Below, piece by piece: positions 4,348 to 26,093 of a DNA stretch of 36,000 nt. The position numbers and the translations under genes are program-made. Source of the stretch: Chrysochromulina tobinii (Eukaryota). Position 1 is the stretch's first letter. Each line of letters begins with the position of its first letter. The stretch is from contig JWZX01002822.1 in assembly GCA_001275005.1 (NCBI GenBank), positions 1 to 36,000 on the forward strand, read 5' to 3'. The notes beneath the pieces are model-generated. The model saw only the letters and a program-made list of their open reading frames with translations, did no database searches and was not told where the DNA came from.

Positions 4348-7300
4348 ATGGAAGCGAGACCGCTGCGGGCGTGGGCCGACCCTACTCTTGTTCAGCAGGC
4401 TCCAGCAGCGAACCCACAAGCACACGCCTCCGCAGTGCGTCGGCAGCAGCCGCCGCCGCCGCCGCATACTCTTGTTCATCATCAAATGGTGAACCCGAAT
4501 GAAATTGAACGGAGGGCTGCTGCTGAGCGCTCCCTCTCGCTTCGTGTGACGCAAATGGTGGGCGCCCGTCCAGCGCCAGTGCTAGGCAGCGCCGCGCCCG
4601 ACAGCAGCTGTGGCTATTCACAGCAGCAGATGCCGATGGGCTATCCGCCACCGCCGGGCTATTACCAGCAGGGTCCGGCCGCCGCTGGTCCGCCGTTGCC
4701 GGGCTACTACCCGCAAGGTCCGATCGCTGCCGGCTCAGCCGTGAGGGCCGTGTACAATAATCGGCCGCAGAGCCCGGGGCCATCGGCCCTGAGCCGCTCG
4801 CAGCAGTCCTTGATGGCTCCCGCTGGCGCTCCCGCTGGCGCTCCGATGGGCGCTGAGCATATGTGGCGCTCGAGTTCGGGCGCGTCGATGAGCCACCGCG
4901 ATGCGCTCAACGGCAGTGGGCTTGCGGCGCCGCAGGTGCGCACGGGGCCGGATCCGGACTTTCGGTGGCGTCTCGACCCGGCCGTGGCCGCGGCGAGCAG
5001 CGGCGGCGGCGGCGAGCCACGACCCGGCGGCAGCGCCGAGCAGCGCGCGGAGCGAATGGCCGCTGAGAATGCCGTGCTGCGCGAGGAGCTGCGCCGCATG
5101 CCCGAAGAGCTGCAGCGCTCGTCGCGGCTGGACCAGAAGCGGCTCGAGGGCCAGATCTCTCGGCTGCAGTCCGAGGTCCGTACGCTCCTCGCCGACGTGG
5201 TCGCCGCCAAGGAGGGACTGAAGCAATCCGAGCTGCGCATCGAGGCGGAGTGTGCGGCCGCCGCCACTGTGGCCCACGATGAGGCCTTCGAAGCCGCGAG
5301 GGAGGAGAAGGAGAAGGCGCTCCGGCTCGCCGCGACCCATGCGGCCACGGCGCTCGAGGACGCGCTGTCGCGGGCGAAGGCGGAGCGCGATGCGGCCCTT
5401 GCGGCGGCGGCAACGCGATCGGAGAGAGCGCTCGCAGAGGAGAGGCAGCGCTCGCAGCGCGAGATCGCGGACGCGATCGCGCGAGCGAAGGTGGAGGCGG
5501 CCGAGGCCATGGCGGCGGAGAAGGGCGAGCTGCATGCGCGTCTCGAGAGGGTGGCGCAGGAGGCCGAGGCCATCCGCGACGAGCTTGGTCGCTCCAAGCG
5601 CGCGATGGAGGACACGGTGCAGGCCGAGCGTGCTAAGGCGCAGCACGAGCTGCAGGCGGCGGCGGAGCGTGCGGCGGCGGACCTCGCGGCGGCGGCCGAG
5701 AAGGCGCAGCGTGAGCAGGCGGTGGCTCTCAAGGCGATGGAGGAGAGCTACCTGGCGAACCCCATCATCAAGGAGGTTGAGGTCATCAAGCAGGTCGTCA
5801 AGGTCAAGGAGGTCATCAAGGAGGTCCCTAAGCCCGTGTACGTCGAGGTCGAGAAGGTGGTGTACCGCGAGAAGGGCAAGCCCAAGACGGCGCTGCCTTG
5901 GGAGCAGCCACGGCCCAGGACGGCGCCCTCCGGACTGCCCAGGACGGCGCCATCAGGGGTCGCGGACTCGGTCACCATACCCGCGGCCGAGGCGATCGCT
6001 CTCGATGCCGCGGAGCGTTTGACGTCGCTGAAGCTCGCAGGCGTGCCAATGAGCCCGGGGCAGCGCCCGCCATCGGGGGCGGCGGCCCGCGCGTCGTCGG
6101 CAGGGGGGATAGGGAGGCTTGCCATCCCGCCGGCGGTGCCCGGTACAGCGCTGCCACTCATGCTTACGGGGACGGGGCCGGCGCCGGCGCCCGGTACAGC
6201 GCTGTCCACGCAGCCATCTGTCGAGTACATCATGCCGCCGGCACCGCAGCCCTCCGAGGCGGGCCCGTTGCCGCCGCAGCCGTTGCCGCCGCAGCCCGCG
6301 CCGCCGCTGCTCCCTGTGGATGAGGAGGCGCTTCTGGCGGCCATGCGGCTGTTGACGAAGCTCGAGCAGCAGGCGGCGGAGGCGGCGAGGGGACCCATCT
6401 TACCGTCGCCACGACGCTCGCAGCCCTCGGCGGACTGTAATCAGCTGATGGGGCCGAGCGCGCTCATGCCCAAGACGGCGCCGAAGGAGCCCGAGGGGCG
6501 CGCCCAGGACGGCGGGGGTGCCCAGGACGGCGTCTTTGTGACGCAGGCTTGCGCCGACAGCATCAACTTCGAGGGCGGTGCCACGGCCGCGCTCGGCATC
6601 GGCGCGCCCTTTTTGGCGGCGCTCGAGACATTCTATATGCAGCACGGTGTTGCAGGTGAGACGACGATGGCGGAGCTATGCGGCGGCGGTGAGCGCATGC
6701 CGCTGAGCGCGACGGTGCAGCAGCTCACCGCGCACACGGGCACTTCTCTCGCGCGCGCGTGCTTCGATCTCGCGCGTCTCGAGCAGGTAATGGCCACTGA
6801 TGACCCCTGATGAGCACTGACCGCCTACGAGTGCCAATGAGCTGAGTGCCTCTGAGTGTCACTGATTGCCTCTGAGTGCCACTGATTGTGGCACTCGCGC
6901 TGTTTGTTCGAGCAGGTGGACACGTCGAGGCTGTTTGGCAGACCGACGCTCCTCCTCAGCTACCCGTCCTCCTCATGCATCGCCGACCTCATCGGCGCTG
7001 CGCAGAGTAGGCTTGGGCGCGCCGCGAGCGCCGCCGCGAGCGCGCCGCCGGCGGCGTTCGCGTGGGTGGACGGTTTCTGCGCCTCTCAGCATGCATCGGC
7101 CGCGGAACTCCATGCGCAGGTAATGAGCCCTGATGAGCCCTGATGAGTATTGACGAGTATTGATGAATACGGATTGCCTATGATTACCCCTGATTGCCAC
7201 TGATTGCCACTGACGTGGAGCTCCATGTGCTGATTGCCACTGATTACCCCTGATTGCCACTCATTGCCAGTGACGTGGAGCTCCATGTGCTGATTGCCAC

Positions 7301-9525
7301 TGATTACCCCTGATTGCCACTGACTGCCAGTGACGTGGAGCTCCATGTGCAGCGGCCCGCGTGCAAGGAGGTGGTGCTCTTCTGCTACCCGCTCGTAGGC
7401 GCATGGGCCCGCCCGGACGAGCCGTTCATGTTGACCAAGCCCGCCACGCCACGTGGCGTCAGCCCGCCGCGCCACGCCCAGGCTACGTCGGGCCTCGGCG
7501 CGAGCAGCGGTGGGGTGGAGGGCGCTGCCATTATGGGCGCCGGTACGGCGCTCAACGGCTCGACGCAGCGCTCGGCCGAAGGGCCGATGGCGCTGAGCCG
7601 CGCTCAGTGCGTGCTCGAGGCGGCGGCGGTGCTCGCCTCGGGCGGCCGTGTGCACGTCGAGCTTGCGACGCATGAGTGGTCGGACCTGCCCGCTCTGCTC
7701 GAGACGTCGCTGGGTCAACTCGATCAGAGCATCCGAAGCGCGAGCGTCGATGGACTCCAGCTGCCCTCCTCCGCCTCTGCAGGCGCGATGCGAGCCCGGT
7801 TCGAGGCGCTCGAGGGGGGCGCTCCAGGCGCGCTTGCCGCTGATGAGCCCTGATTGCCTTTATTGAGTACCACTGATTGCCACTGGTTGCCACTGGTTGC
7901 CACTGATGGTGGCGCTCGCGCTTCTCGCTCCAGGCGCGCTTGCCGCTGTGCAGAGGGCTGTGCGCGGATGGCTCGCAGCTGAGGGTGCGGCGGCGCTGCG
8001 TCGGCTCGAGGTAGAGCGTGGGCCGCGCACGCCGCTGCCACTCCGACTCGAGCTCGCGCAGGTGTGCTGATGACCTCTGATGACCTCTGATGACCTCTGA
8101 TGACCTCTGATGACCTCTGATGACCTCTGATGATCTCTTGTGCAGTTGCTCGCGGCGCTTGGGCGACCCGCGGAGGCAGAGGCACTCCTCGTGCATGAGG
8201 CGACGGTGCGAGAGGAGCACTCCGGCGCTCGGAACGCCGAGACGCTCGCTGCGGTCAGCTGTCTCGCGAGGCTGCTTGCCCAGGAAGGGAGGACTGCCGA
8301 GGCGACGCAGCTCTACCGGCACGCCCTCGCCGAGTACGAGCAAGGCTTTGGAGTGTCGTCACCCCTCACTCTCCGTACGAGCGTCGCCCTCGCCGAGCTG
8401 CTCGCCGATCAACGGCTCACCGACGAGGCTGCGTCGCTGTACCGCGGCGCACTCAAGGGGCTCGAGCTCACGCTGGGCCTCGCGCACCCGCTCACGCTGC
8501 AGACGACCGATGCGTACGGGATGGTGCTCGCGGAGCAAGGCAAGCGCGCGCTCGCCGCGTCCGTCTTCAAGCGTGCGCTCGAAGGCTACCAGAAGGCCTA
8601 CGGCGCACGCCACCCGGAGACCCTCGGTACCATGAGCAACCTGGCCAACGCGCTGCGCCTTCAAGGGAAGCTCGAGCCGGCGGCGCTCTACTACGCGCAG
8701 GCGAGCCGTGGGTTGATGCTCGCGCTCGGGGAGACTGATCGAGAGACGCTACGGGCACTCCATGGGTTCGCGCAGGTGCTCGCCCTGCAGAAGAAGCACG
8801 ACGAGGCCGCTGAGTACTTCCGGAAGGCTTATGAGGGGCGCCAGGCGCTGCTAGGGGATGAGCACGTGAGTACGCTGCGCACGCTCGGAGAGTACGCGCA
8901 GTCTCTGGTCGTGCTCGGGCGTGTAGCTGAGGGGATCGAGGGGCTTCAGCGCTGCCTGCATGGCGCCGAGCGCGTGCACGGCCCTCAGCACGAGGACACC
9001 CTCAACGCCATGGAGCGCCTCGCCGGTGCGCACGACAAGGCCAAGGAGTACGTGAGCGCCGAAGGCTACTACCGGCACGTGACCGAGGCGCTGGCGCGCA
9101 CTCTGGGCGTACGGCATGAGCGCACCCGACACGTGGCCGCGAAGCTCCTCGACAACCTTGTGCAGCAAGTCAAGCTTGTCGAGGCGCAGGACGTGGCCAA
9201 GCATTACAAGCTCGATCTCGCGCTGAAGCAGCCCAAGCGCACGCCGCCCGCATCGTACAGCGCCCTGAGCGCTCAGGACGGCGCGGGAGCAGCCCCGGTG
9301 CGCCCCGCAAACGGCGCTGTGGTCAACGGAATGGGAGGGCCGCCCCTCGTGCCGCGCAAACCCACCGTCGAAGCTGTCGTCACGCAACGGGCCATGGCGG
9401 CCGCTTCGGCCGCTTCGGCCGCTTCGGCCGAGCCAGCTGCGAGCTTGCCCGCGCCCGCGCCCGCCTTGTCACCGTGGGGCACGACCGACGCACCGCCGAG
9501 TTCGCCGAACGCTGCCGGCCGATGA
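4348..9525 (+). CDS. ~1541-aa protein: Pro/Gln-rich N-terminus, long coiled coil, HET/TIR-like domain, kinesin-light-chain-type TPR repeats; exons 4348-6786, 6916-7119, 7353-7827, 7934-8061, 8146-9525
   Basis: Four introns (three GT-AG, one GC-AG) join ORFs 4348..6810, 6886..7143, 7314..7853, an unlisted short exon and 8140..9525 without frameshift or stop. TPR_10/12-type repeats such as YGARHPETLGTMSNLANALRLQGKLEPAALYY. Confidence 0.82.
6787..6915 (+). other. Intron 1 of TPR gene (129 nt, GT-AG, phase 0), decamer-repeat type
   Basis: CAG|GTAATG...TTCGAGCAG|GTG; filled with TGATGACCCC/TGAGTGCCTC-like units; TCGAGCAGGT repeated at both boundaries. Confidence 0.85.
7120..7352 (+). other. Intron 2 of TPR gene (233 nt, GT-AG, phase 0), decamer-repeat type with 60-bp higher-order repeat
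   Basis: CAG|GTAATG...ATGTGCAG|CGG; strict 10-nt register; frame preserved into ORF 7314..7853. Confidence 0.85.
7181..7350 (+). repeat. ~2.8 copies of a 60-bp unit (four TGATTGCCAC-like decamers + TGACGTGGAGCTCCATGTGC)
   Basis: Units at 7181-7240, 7241-7300 and 7301-7350, read directly. Confidence 0.9.
7828..7933 (+). other. Intron 3 of TPR gene (106 nt, GC-AG, phase 1), decamer-repeat type
   Basis: CCAG|GCGCGC...CTTCTCGCTCCAG|GCGCGC; removal gives continuous GAPGALAAVQRAVRGWL. Confidence 0.8.
8062..8145 (+). other. Intron 4 of TPR gene (84 nt, GT-AG, phase 0) containing (TGATGACCTC)6
   Basis: GCAG|GTGTGC, six perfect decamers 8068-8127 plus one variant, then TTGTGCAG|TTG. Confidence 0.85.
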
Positions 9526-19989: not shown

Positions 19990-20382
19990 ATCGCAGCGCT
20001 CCTCCGCGGGCCGCAAACGACCGGACGACGACGACTGGACGATAAGGACCACGACGGCGAGAGCGCCATGGATGACAAGTGAATGCTTGGAGGTTGGCGG
20101 GATTGACGAGAGCGTCGCATGTCGCGCTGGCTTCCCCAAAGAGAGTGCAGACCCACCGGAGTGCCCCGCGGCCCGTCGCCCATGATCGTATGAGAGCTCG
20201 GCCGGCCGTGCAGCTGAAAGCCGGGCAGACACAGGAGCATGCAGGAGGCTTTTGCATGGCGGTACGCCCCACATGGAATGTGAGGAAACGGCCTCTGACA
20301 GTGAGCCTACAATTTGAAATGCTGTACCATTTTGGCCGAGACGGTTGTAATATGATGGGGGCGCGAGTTGTGTGTAATTATG
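19990..20382 (+). pseudogene. Degenerate inverted copy of the RB gene 3' coding end, stop codon and downstream region (22463-22853)
   Basis: For example gacggcgagagcgccatggatgacaagtgaatg (DGESAMDDK*) and long matches to the reverse complement of 22463-22853, with many small indels; weaker similarity continues to ~19880. Confidence 0.85.
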
Positions 20383-20481: not shown

Positions 20482-20830
20482 AGACATGCACGTCACGGAC
20501 CAGGGCAAAGCCCAGACCAGCGCAAACTCTGCTGCTCATTCCCACCACCTCTCTCCAGTTAGGCAGCCATAGACCCTCTCTCTGTACTTGCACTAGGCAT
20601 GCACGTCACGGACCAGGGCAAAGCCCAGACCAGCGCAAACTCTGCTGCTCATTCCCACCACCTCTTCTCGCCAGTTAGGCAGCCATAGACCCTCTCTCTG
20701 TACTTGCACTAGACATGCACGTCACGGACCAGGGCAAAGCCCAGACCAGCGCAAACTCTGCTGCTCATTCCCACCACCTCTTCTCTCCAGTTAGGCAGCC
20801 ATAGATCCCTCTCTCCGTACTTGTACTTGC
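20482..20830. repeat. Three tandem copies of a 113-116 bp unit downstream of the RRM gene stop (likely 3' UTR)
   Basis: Unit starts at 20482, 20595 and 20711 (AGRCATGCACGTCACGGACCAGGGCAAAGCCC...GTACTTG). Confidence 0.9.
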
Positions 20831-22244: not shown

Positions 22245-22762
22245 GGTCAGGGTGTGGTAACTGGATAGTTATACACCCCACGCACGGGGAGTGTCAGGCG
22301 GGCTGCTGACGCCGCAGGGACAGGCATGGCGGTCAGGCAGCGAGAGCGAGCACTGGACTCCGCACCATTTTGCGATTTCCCACTGACCACGTGGCGGGAC
22401 GCGAACTTCACGCGAAACGTCACAAAAGCGCAATCAACTATTCTCAACCTCCTGGACAACAACATAATCACACACAACTCGCGCCCCCATCATATTACAT
22501 CTCTCGGCCCCATCATTTCAAATAGGTCACGCGGGGCACGGTCAGAGGCCCGTAGGGTCCTCACATTCCATGTGGGGCGCACGCCATGCAAAGCCTCCTG
22601 CATGCTCCTGTGTCTGCCCGGCTTCCAGCTGCACGGCCGGCCGAGCTCTCATACGATCATGGGCGACGGGCCGCGGGGCACTCCGGTGGGTCTGCACGCG
22701 CGCTCTCTTTGGGGAAGCGCGACATGCGACGCTCTCGTCAATCCCGCCACGCCTCCGATCAT

Positions 22763-25700
22763 TCACTTGTCATCCATGGCGCTCTCGCCGTCGTCCTCAT
22801 CGTCGTCGTCGTCGTCGTTGGCGGCCGCGGAGGAGGAAGCTGAGCGCTGCGATGACGCGCTCACCTGCGACGCGTCGAAGACCTCATGTTTGCGCTTCAG
22901 GCTGCTCGCCAGGCTGCTGCCACCGCCACCGAGCGTCCGCCGCCCCGCATCGCCATTGGCCGCCGCCGCTACCGATGCGGGCGCTGCGCCGGTGGACGAG
23001 TGCATCGCGACGAGCGCATTCGCAGTGTCGGCCGAGCCGGCCGAGCCGGCCGCGCCGGTCGCGTTGATGTTCGCGTTGAAGTTGCGGAGCCGCTCGGCGC
23101 CATCAGCCGGAGTCTCCGAAAAGGACCAGAGCGTCCGAGTGCGCGGCGTCAGGTGGTGCGCGTTCGGGTTCCGATGCGACACGTACACCTCGGACGAGCC
23201 CACGTGCCGTGGCGACGCGGATCCTCTCGACTCGTTGATGTCGGGTGACGTCTTGCCCGTCGCTGAGGCGGCGGCGCTCACGCCGGCTGTTGAGGCGCCA
23301 GAAGCGGGCGCCGAGCCCGCGGCGCACACGGCGATCAGGTGCTCCTTCATCTTCGGGATGAAGATCAGGTTGTAGAACCGAATGATGTCTTGCGGCTCTT
23401 CCTCGGCCGTCGCCATGCGCACCTGATGAGTTACGCAATCAGTCAGGCCATCAGTAGCAATCAATGGTAATCAGGGCGACAGCTCGGCCGTTGCCATGCG
23501 CACCTCGCGGAAGGTACGCGGCGAGGCAATCATGGGTAATCAGCGGTCATCAGAGGTCATCATGAGCTTCTCGAGGCGCACCTCGCGGAAGGTACGTGGC
23601 GAGGCGCCCGGCTGGCGCTTGTACTGCTCGATGATCTGGCGGAAGGTCACTTGCCGCTGATTGACCTTGCACACGCCATACACGGCGCACATGAGGATCT
23701 GGTCCAGATGGCGCCCAACGAGCAAGTCGCGCGCGGAATCGATGACGAGCTTGGACACGTCCCACACTTGCTGCGTCAGCGCGGCGTCGAGCAGCAGCCG
23801 CAGGCACAGCTCCTGGATGCGCTTGGCGGCAAGGTAGAGGTACTTGCGCACAAACTGTTCGAGCGCCGCGCGCGCGCGAGACGGCGCTGCTGACGAAGCG
23901 CCCGCTACGGCGCTGCGGCTCGCCGAGAACGTCGCATCGTACTCGGCCATGAGTGAGTGCAGCGGAGAGTCGTCGCACCATGCGAGGCTCTCGATGATCT
24001 TGGACTCGACGTCGGCAAAGTGGAGCTTGAGGTGGGCGGGCAGGTGCGGCTCGTGTCGGATGAAGGACTCAATCACCTTAGCGAAATTAAAGGCCTTGAG
24101 AGAAAGGACACGGAGGACTTCGGGGAAGCCCATGCCCGGGGTCGAGTACGAGGCGAAGACGCTCTCGAGGCAGCACGCGAGCAACGAGGTGTGGAAGGTT
24201 TCATTGGCGAGGAGCTCCGAGAAGTCGCTGTTGCCCAGCCTCTTCTCCTCGGCCATCAAGAAAGAGAGCAGCATCTTGAAGTAAAGCCGCTCTGAGAGCT
24301 CGAGCTGCTCCTCGACGGCCTCCTTCGACGGACCTTGCTCGTTGTCGAGCAGCATGTTGCGTGCGGCACTCAAGAGCCTAGCAAGACGCTCCTGCACGGT
24401 CGCCTTCACATTGGGCAAGCCGGCGGCACATTCGAAAAACTTGGCGAGCCCCGACGAGGAGGCGCCATTGTCGATTGTCGCGGGCGCCGCGCGGGTGAGC
24501 CAGCCCACAGCGTCGAGCTGCGAGCTCATCGGCGTCTGCGGGATGGCCTGGGCCGGCCGGCCGCCCATGGGGTTGCTGCTGCGCAGGGGCGTGAGCGGCA
24601 GCGCCGAGGCGTGACGCGACGTGCCCGTTGCGGCAGGCGCCACCGTCCCCCTGCTGCCACTGCCCGGCGGGGAGCTCATCGAGGCGTTCATCGACGCGGA
24701 GGAGGCCGTGTGTGAGGGCCGGTAGGGCGACGCGGGCACCGAGGCGTTCGGCTGGCGCGGCGGCGCGGGCTGCGGTTGCAGGAAGTAGGCATCATCGAGC
24801 TGCGAACGAACAACCGATGAGGAGAGAAAGGGAACGAGAGGGCGGGGGAGAGCAGTTGAGCAGTTGATCTGCAGGGGTCAAACAGGGACGGGCGCGCAAG
24901 CGCAGGCGCAGGCGATTGCCGCCGGGCCGCAGCGATAGGTTGGCACGCGGGGCAAGGTGCGTACATGGCACTTGGTACGCCAATCCGCCTCGTAGCGCGC
25001 GCGCACAAGCGACACGGTGCCCGCGAGGGCACTTGGAGATAGCAGGGAGCGGAGCTTTGCGCCTCCCGCCGCCGAGAGCTTGCCCTCGGCTGAGACGGGG
25101 CCGAGCTCAGGCCAGATGGTGGAGAGGCTCTCGAGGAGCGCGGTGATGGTGGGCTGCTGCTTGGTCAGCTCCTCGGGCACCGTCTTCAGATGGGCCCCTA
25201 GGAGCTCTAGGGCCGCCGCGGGCAGCGGGTAGCAGGGCGCACTCACGGAGAAACGAGGGTCGAGCTTAGGCCAGAAAACGGTGGCGGTCATGGCCTCCTC
25301 GGGGATATGCGCGAGGAGCAGATGCACGACGCAGGCTAGCAGGTGGTACGCGGGCAGCAACGACGACGCGCTCGCGCGGCTCGCCTCGTGGAACCTCGCC
25401 AGGGCGAAGAGCCACCAGCCGAGGTCGAACGAGAGTTTTTTAATGCAGGCCTCCTCGTCGCTGGCCCTGGTGCCGGAGAAGCCGTTTGGGAAGAGGTCGC
25501 GTGAGAACGTCTTCCACTTGTCGTGCATCGTGGCCGTGGTCACGTAGGCCTGCATGACGGGCTGCAGCTCGCCCATCTCCTCGCCAGGGAAGAGGCGTGA
25601 GTGCACATCTTTGACGCTCGTGAAAAAGTCCTTCAGGTGTAGCGCCAGTTGCGTTGTGAGCTCAGCGACGGAGATGCCGGGCAGCGGCTTGCCCATGGTG

Positions 25701-26093
25701 CTCGCCAGAAACACGACTGCCGCCAGCTTGCCGTGGTCGCTCATCTGCGCAGATTCCGACAGGTGGCGCCCTCAGAGAGGATGGCGTAACAGACTCAAGG
25801 ACCCCACCGGCCGCAGGGAGGCTTCACAAGAGAGTCAGCCTTGGGAATCTTGGTGGCAGCGTTGGCCAACCGTCAGGCAGAGCCGATAGCGCGCTGCCCC
25901 GCCCGAGCGCAGGCGTTGCACGCGCCTGGGGTGAGACATGGTCGTCGGAGGTTTGGAGCCTCTGCAGAAGCTCGACGCTGCCCGCCCGGATGTCACTGGA
26001 GTAGCCCTTTTGCTGGCACAGATTATCCAAATGGGTGAATATATCTAGTCCGCCGGCCGTCGCCGCGCTCGAGACACGCTTTGGAGAGTCCAT
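22763..26093 (-). CDS. RBR: Retinoblastoma-related pocket protein, ~941 aa; exons 26093-25926, 25744-24965, 24799-23582, 23422-22763
   Basis: N-domain GWWLFALAR...AYHLLACVV and YE...LDDAYFL. Pocket A FHTSLLACCLESV...FNFAKVIESFIRHEPHLPAHLKLHF...IIESLAW..DSPL. Pocket B GRHLDQILMCAVYGVCKV...TFRQIIEQYKRQP...DIIRFYN. C-terminal VYVS and LTPRT. All splice joins are in frame. Confidence 0.93.
23423..23581 (-). other. Intron 3 of RB gene (159 nt, GT-AG, phase 0), decamer-repeat type with an internal copy of the exon junction
   Basis: GAG|GTGCGC...TCATCAG|GTGCGC; TGATGACCTC/TGATTACCCA-like units on the sense strand; removal restores TFREVRMATAEEEPQDIIRFYN. Confidence 0.88.
24800..24964 (-). other. 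Intron 2 of RB gene (165 nt, GT-AG, phase 0)
   Basis: CAT|GTACGC...TTCGCAG|CTC with a pyrimidine-rich interior; restores the YE..LDDAYFL motif. Confidence 0.8.
25745..25925 (-). other. Intron 1 of RB gene (181 nt, GC-AG, phase 0)
   Basis: CCCCAG|GCGCGT...GCGCAG|ATG; joins ORF 25824..26093 to ORF 24878..25744 in frame. Confidence 0.7.

Follow-up and report, generated by a model that had tools for sequence, protein, structure and literature searches.

How does an intron come to contain, in one contiguous stretch, the exon-exon junction that its own removal produces? How genes acquire introns is still unsettled, and there are few cases in which the steps can be read back. Intron 3 of a retinoblastoma-related (RB) gene, found in the Chrysochromulina tobinii DNA analysed here (36,000 nt, hereafter the window; eukaryotic DNA with a GC content of about 60-73%), appears to be such a case. 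The features discussed are collected in Table 1.

Table 1. Coordinates of the RB gene, of the parts of its intron 3 and of the predicted decamer introns.
Feature	Positions	Strand	Basis or remark
RB (retinoblastoma-related) gene	22763..26093	-	homologues with PF01858/PF01857, named retinoblastoma-related
RB exons 1 to 4	26093-25926, 25744-24965, 24799-23582, 23422-22763	-	model, 941 aa
RB intron 3, GT...CAG, 159 nt	23423..23581	-	RNA joint; splicing restores conserved protein
30-nt repeat, first copy: last 24 nt of exon 3 and the used donor GTGCGC	23576..23605	-	repeat search
Filler 1 (48 nt of decamer units with an in-frame stop)	23528..23575	-	sequence
Intronic copy of exon 3 end, ends GAG	23504..23527	-	23/24 against window exon, 24/24 against L010 exon
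Intronic copy of exon 4 start, opens with second donor-like GTGCGC	23483..23503	-	20/21
Filler 2, 60 nt including final AG	23423..23482	-	sequence
23-nt repeat, second copy: acceptor AG and first 21 nt of exon 4	23402..23424	-	repeat search
Four predicted decamer-filled introns in one gene (4348-9525)	6787-6915, 7120-7352, 7828-7933, 8062-8145	+	

Anatomy of RB intron 3

The four-exon model of the RB gene agrees with the intron numbering of the initial annotation. Introns 2 and 3 are joints found in RNA and intron 1 was inferred from a homology alignment; their sizes are 181 nt (intron 1), 165 nt (intron 2) and 159 nt (intron 3). The predicted intron 1 (25925-25745, minus strand) has a GC donor.

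Read in the sense direction, intron 3 consists of GTGCGC, filler 1 (48 nt), a copy of the end of exon 3 (24 nt), a copy of the start of exon 4 (21 nt) and filler 2 (60 nt). Positions 23527-23504 differ at a single base from the 24 nt that end exon 3 (23605-23582), and 23503-23483 likewise from the 21 nt that open exon 4 (23422-23402). The 45-nt copy of the intron's own spliced junction with one mismatch in each half, as first described from the letters of the DNA, is therefore confirmed at 43 of 45 positions; the best match elsewhere in the window, as in 2000 base shuffles of intron 3, reaches at most 27/45. The repeats themselves are longer than had been described: the one upstream runs 6 nt past the first donor, to 30 nt, and the one downstream includes the acceptor AG, giving 23 nt. 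Two blocks can thus be drawn, an upstream block of 78 nt (23581-23504) bracketed by the 30-nt repeat (exon 3 end and GTGCGC) and a downstream block of 81 nt (23503-23423) bracketed by the 23-nt repeat (AG and exon 4 start), and the two repeats overlap by 8 nt. Among 926 control AG/G[TC]..AG pairs in exons none reached 20 nt of junction-spanning repeat. Each block carries an in-frame stop, so that both must be removed, and each on its own rejoins the reading frame when taken out in silico. As read from the sequence, the final decamer of filler 1 overlaps the following repeat copy by 5 nt. The last 19 nt of filler 2 (23441-23423) form a 3' end motif that is common to two unrelated loci, L045 and L070.

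Intron 3 is removed whole: the 159-nt joint, with the CT..AC ends of a minus-strand gene, was present in all three RNA runs, and its GT..AG ends together with this removal identify a spliceosomal intron. The sequencing runs in which the DNA of the window occurs are mixed-culture and freshwater samples, and a protein encoded in the window falls into a 90% identity cluster with one named Chrysochromulina parva; together they point to a freshwater Chrysochromulina or something very close. One DNA-run contig spans 22765-25900 without a gap, in a run that may come from the same culture as the window. A 21-nt word from the junction retrieved 10 metagenome loci, of which four were unrelated (L003, L004, L007, L008) and dropped, and the other six were the RB gene. 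All six contain the full two-block intron and four of them carry substitutions of their own. An assembly artefact, an objection foreseen in the initial annotation, is rejected by the gapless DNA contig and the six related contigs. The alleles with no filler block or only one that it had proposed to look for did not appear in these six contigs, a small sample, though the search word would match all such alleles. The RB copy in L010 (positions 687-1310) is 94% identical, frameshifted and truncated, and has the same intron; a stretch of about 200 nt of low divergence in it is suggestive of gene conversion.

Indications of an intron-less ancestor at the intron-3 site

The protein of a relative, P0002, has a 36-aa insert exactly at the position of RB intron 2 and runs uninterrupted through the intron-3 site. 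Since it retains intron 2 in frame, it is a read-through call from genomic DNA. Two further proteins, P0005 and P0008, show intron-like inserts elsewhere and also read through the intron-3 site. These relatives' proteins indicate an intron-less DNA ancestor at this site, loss in the relative being possible, and intron 3 would on the genomic read-through of P0002 be a recent gain.

With such an ancestor indicated, the contiguous junction requires no RNA template. The suggestion that the copy was templated from spliced RNA is thus unneeded, each half of it also matching the pattern of a single block. An internal "spliced junction" is by itself no proof of RNA-to-DNA copying.

Two stacked insertions as the preferred origin

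We consider it probable that intron 3 is a compound new intron, built by two successive insertions of decamer filler at one junction, the downstream block first. Two overlapping footprints of insertion with direct repeats (30 and 23 nt) are what a compound neointron should show, and of the origins proposed at the outset it is two duplication-plus-filler events at the same AG/GT that fit best.

In the mechanism we propose, a 58-nt filler would have entered an intron-less exon and duplicated 23 nt, namely AG and what is now the start of exon 4. The duplicate would have supplied a GT donor and the end of the filler a CAG acceptor, leaving the gene functional. At that donor a second filler would then have inserted itself, with a duplication of 30 nt (exon 3 end and GTGCGC) by which a new donor would have arisen upstream and the old exon end with its old donor would have become intronic. 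The 45-nt junction copy would be the overlap of the two duplications and as such a remnant of the gene in its intron-less state. If a duplication spans a working donor, it should be spliceable at once, so that second hits may survive selection more often than other insertions into exons. Candidates for the chemistry are a small mobile element and break repair in which a decamer template from elsewhere, one of a dispersed set, was copied. No inverted repeat pair bounding either filler was seen among the longest 25 of 52 pairs. Nor did the target appear as a structural hotspot: a hairpin stem can be drawn there, but its fold has a z of -0.17 against shuffles, and against GC-matched exon windows it lies at the 15th percentile.

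The downstream block is placed first because only it forms a well-built GT-CAG intron: it ends in CAG, like 7/7 modelled introns of the window, and the upstream block in GAG. Compared with L010, 6/60 positions differ in filler 2 and 0/99 in the upstream block together with the exon 4 copy (post hoc Fisher p 0.0025). This divergence is as expected of an older downstream block and is weakly consistent with it. The low-divergence stretch of L010 reaches into exon 3 (1/76 and 1/24); gene conversion may explain it, and the contrast of 6/60 with 0/99 does not settle the order. The mismatch in the exon 4 copy is present in 7/7 sequences, and the exon 3 copy is identical to the L010 exon.

The main rival is a single event of break repair with several template switches, in which filler, then 45 nt from an intact intron-less sister chromatid or homologue, then filler again were copied. 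The presence of both blocks in all six related contigs and of a single block in none would suit it, as would the 5-nt overlap by which filler 1 is joined to the copy, and Li et al. consider that internal breaks may have occurred while an intron was being formed (PMC4202315). We nevertheless regard it as unlikely: either block shows in full a pattern that is found singly, the filler of the downstream block has the family motif at its end and has diverged from L010 more than the upstream block has, and the exon 4 copy has its mismatch in every sequence while the exon 3 copy matches the L010 exon.

An ordinary tandem duplication around the splice site, following one insertion and with its outer parts since decayed, seems improbable. 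The blocks are of similar length (78 and 81 nt), and amplification of filler with an exon-end copy is seen as a 60-nt triplication at 7172-7350 and perhaps in L070. Against this, the two fillers are alike at the level of the decamer only, no more than 6 nt of the start of exon 4 lie in the upstream block, and the exon copies are preserved at 23/24 and 20/21 where equally old intronic parts should have decayed alike.

Capture of a piece of reverse-transcribed spliced RB mRNA inside a pre-existing 114-nt intron with an 8-nt repeat is quite improbable. Two points speak for it: the splice junction lies at the centre of the copy, and the whole of intron 3 is flanked by an 8-nt repeat from which such a simpler ancestor can be drawn. 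Against it, the copy bears no RNA-specific mark and an intron-less genomic state is indicated, it covers one junction only and has no poly-A as a retrocopy would, no junction copy is found in RB introns 1 and 2, which are older, the piece would have had to land inside its own 114-nt intron, and recombination with cDNA is generally expected to remove introns (PMC3443670).

It had been proposed to search all introns for copies of their own junction; within the window one intron in seven contains such a copy (RB intron 3, the other six being negative), so no rate can be given. Both duplications are preserved nearly intact and in several public contigs, which makes their order and mechanism testable with population data.

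The inner AG/GT as a possible splice site

The copy places an AG/GT (23505-23502) inside the intron, and the initial annotation saw in it a possible recursive splice site, at which intron 3 would be removed in two steps. In its favour, the frame is rejoined in silico on removal of either sub-block, and alleles differ little in the upstream block. We find a working recursive site very improbable, as the inner acceptor is GAG against the CAG of every modelled intron of the window, and the size of the intron is ordinary (159 nt against 181 and 165 nt for its neighbours). Ratchet points of large introns follow the consensus (y)nncag/gtaagt (PMC2773006); the inner site shares with them an AG/GT, but it reads GAG/GT and sits in a short intron of 159 nt where a strong YAG/GT in a long one would be looked for, and no intermediate was seen. 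A joint of 78 or 81 nt was absent from contigs of the three RNA runs, which consist of mostly mature RNA and easily miss intermediates. Occasional use of the inner donor, which is predicted to keep 78 nt with a stop, is a more plausible side effect than recursion. We also considered an RNA structure that hides the inner donor and rejected it: the fold of the whole region has a z of -1.75, equalled by 10 of 200 shuffles, and is not relied on.

Decamer introns at other loci

The single-block form is seen in the four predicted decamer-filled introns of a neighbouring gene in the window. Their junction-spanning repeats measure 10, 12, 23 and 4 nt; compared with controls, the three longer ones reach or exceed the top 1% and the 4-nt one does not. 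Removing the four predicted introns lengthens the open frame from 820 to 1541 aa. The third (7828-7933) has a GC donor. RB introns 1 and 2, which are without decamer arrays, have junction-spanning repeats of 0 and 3 nt. The duplications thus have lengths of 4, 10, 12, 23, 23 and 30 nt, where DNA-transposon introners would show one fixed length.

All five introns share decamers, and RB intron 3, L045 and L070 share the 19-nt 3' end; there is no end-to-end similarity. The recurrence of this end of filler 2 at L045 and L070 argues that the filler was copied from a dispersed family and is not random. The core decamer motif occurs 31 times in sense and never in antisense in the five introns. Its CTGAT resembles the branch-point consensus, which would explain why insertions in the sense direction are spliceable.

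Some details of these arrays deserve mention. At 7172-7350 a 60-nt unit made of decamers and a copy of the upstream exon end is tripled within one predicted intron. Comparing 7904-7933 with 7798-7827, 8 further bases match upstream of the exact repeat, and a purine run of the exon at 7798-7827 faces pyrimidines in the intron; a longer duplicate was possibly reshaped there into an acceptor tract.

A search of genome contigs for decamer arrays gave 27 loci, two of which (L041 and L029) look by eye like eukaryotic contaminants. Many genome records of bacteria (L017-L043) have similar arrays of CTGAT decamers, often apparently intergenic. In viral contigs the search for family members yielded one useful fragment (L057/L070) and otherwise matches that look like chance. 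L070, on the same contig as L057, is a GC-rich fragment with which an otherwise AT-rich viral contig ends, and is probably a chimeric join of haptophyte DNA. In its positions 1-280 the family 3' end occurs twice, with an identical 14 nt after each, a second stacked arrangement; in a short fragment at a contig end this could be a plain tandem duplication.

A single locus is of modest weight, and more is to be gained from the family of decamer introns to which it points. As a conjecture that we hold to be doubtful, freshwater Chrysochromulina may harbour an undescribed intron-making family, whose branch-point-like decamer arrays would be copied, through microhomology priming, either from intron RNA after its excision or from other such arrays. 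It would insert in sense only, duplicate 4-30 nt of target and preferentially hit splice junctions again, stacking introns with fossils of the intron-less gene inside them. We found no published description of decamer-filled introns with long and variable duplications, though the family may be listed in supplements, for example among the introners tabulated by Gozashti et al.

Relation to known systems

By analogy, RB intron 3 appears to work like a compound neointron of Daphnia combined with a target-duplicating introner. In Daphnia pulex, new introns were enlarged by secondary staggered insertions in or beside them, through staggered-then-staggered and side-by-side breaks (Li et al., PMC4202315). 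The likeness lies in a new intron flanked by direct repeats that received a further insertion, either at its own site or next to it. The Daphnia repeats are 4-12 bp, however, and their inserts are AT-rich and mostly unrelated (PMC4202315), whereas RB intron 3 has repeats of 23-30 nt and a shared family of decamer filler, and the overlap of its repeats rebuilds the junction. Intermediate or intron-less population alleles of the Daphnia type were found in none of the six related contigs.

Some known introners obtain a splice site from the target sequence that they duplicate, and one family with 4-bp duplications has been described from a Chrysochromulina metagenome-assembled genome (bioRxiv 10.1101/2022.06.06.494994; 10.1101/2020.10.14.339549). 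Further target-duplicating introners are treated in PMC12130899 and PMC11282704, in whose main texts haptophytes are absent. In introners as in the decamer introns, a repeated element gives one splice site and the duplicated target the other, and the 3' end is common across loci (Gozashti et al., bioRxiv 10.1101/2022.06.06.494994; Roy et al., 10.1101/2020.10.14.339549). The introner examples given there differ in having fixed duplications of 4 or 8 nt, and the Chrysochromulina one carries the 5' site; the decamer introns have duplications of anything from 4 to 30 nt and a variable decamer body, and it is the 3' site that is carried.

Tandem duplication of a segment containing AGGT is another known way of making introns (Hellsten et al., PMC3265369; PMC3443670; PMC3296678). 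There too donor and acceptor come from a duplicated AG/GT and the protein is unchanged, a form that the upstream block has. RB intron 3 differs by the foreign filler between its duplicates and by two overlapping events. Replitrons, whose account in PMC10288648 describes variable target duplications and mentions no decamer body in the parts drawn on here, are a remote lead. On introns, the parts of the C. tobin genome paper (PMC4580454) that treat them give a count per gene only.

Other repeats near the RB gene

The 3' end of the RB gene and the DNA downstream of it have an inverted duplicate of 84.5% identity (19999-20382 against 22463-22835). The pair brackets a gene resembling those of RNA-binding proteins and is also present in L001, L002, L005, L006 and L009. 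At 20482-20827 a 116-nt unit occurs in three tandem copies that are 96% alike.
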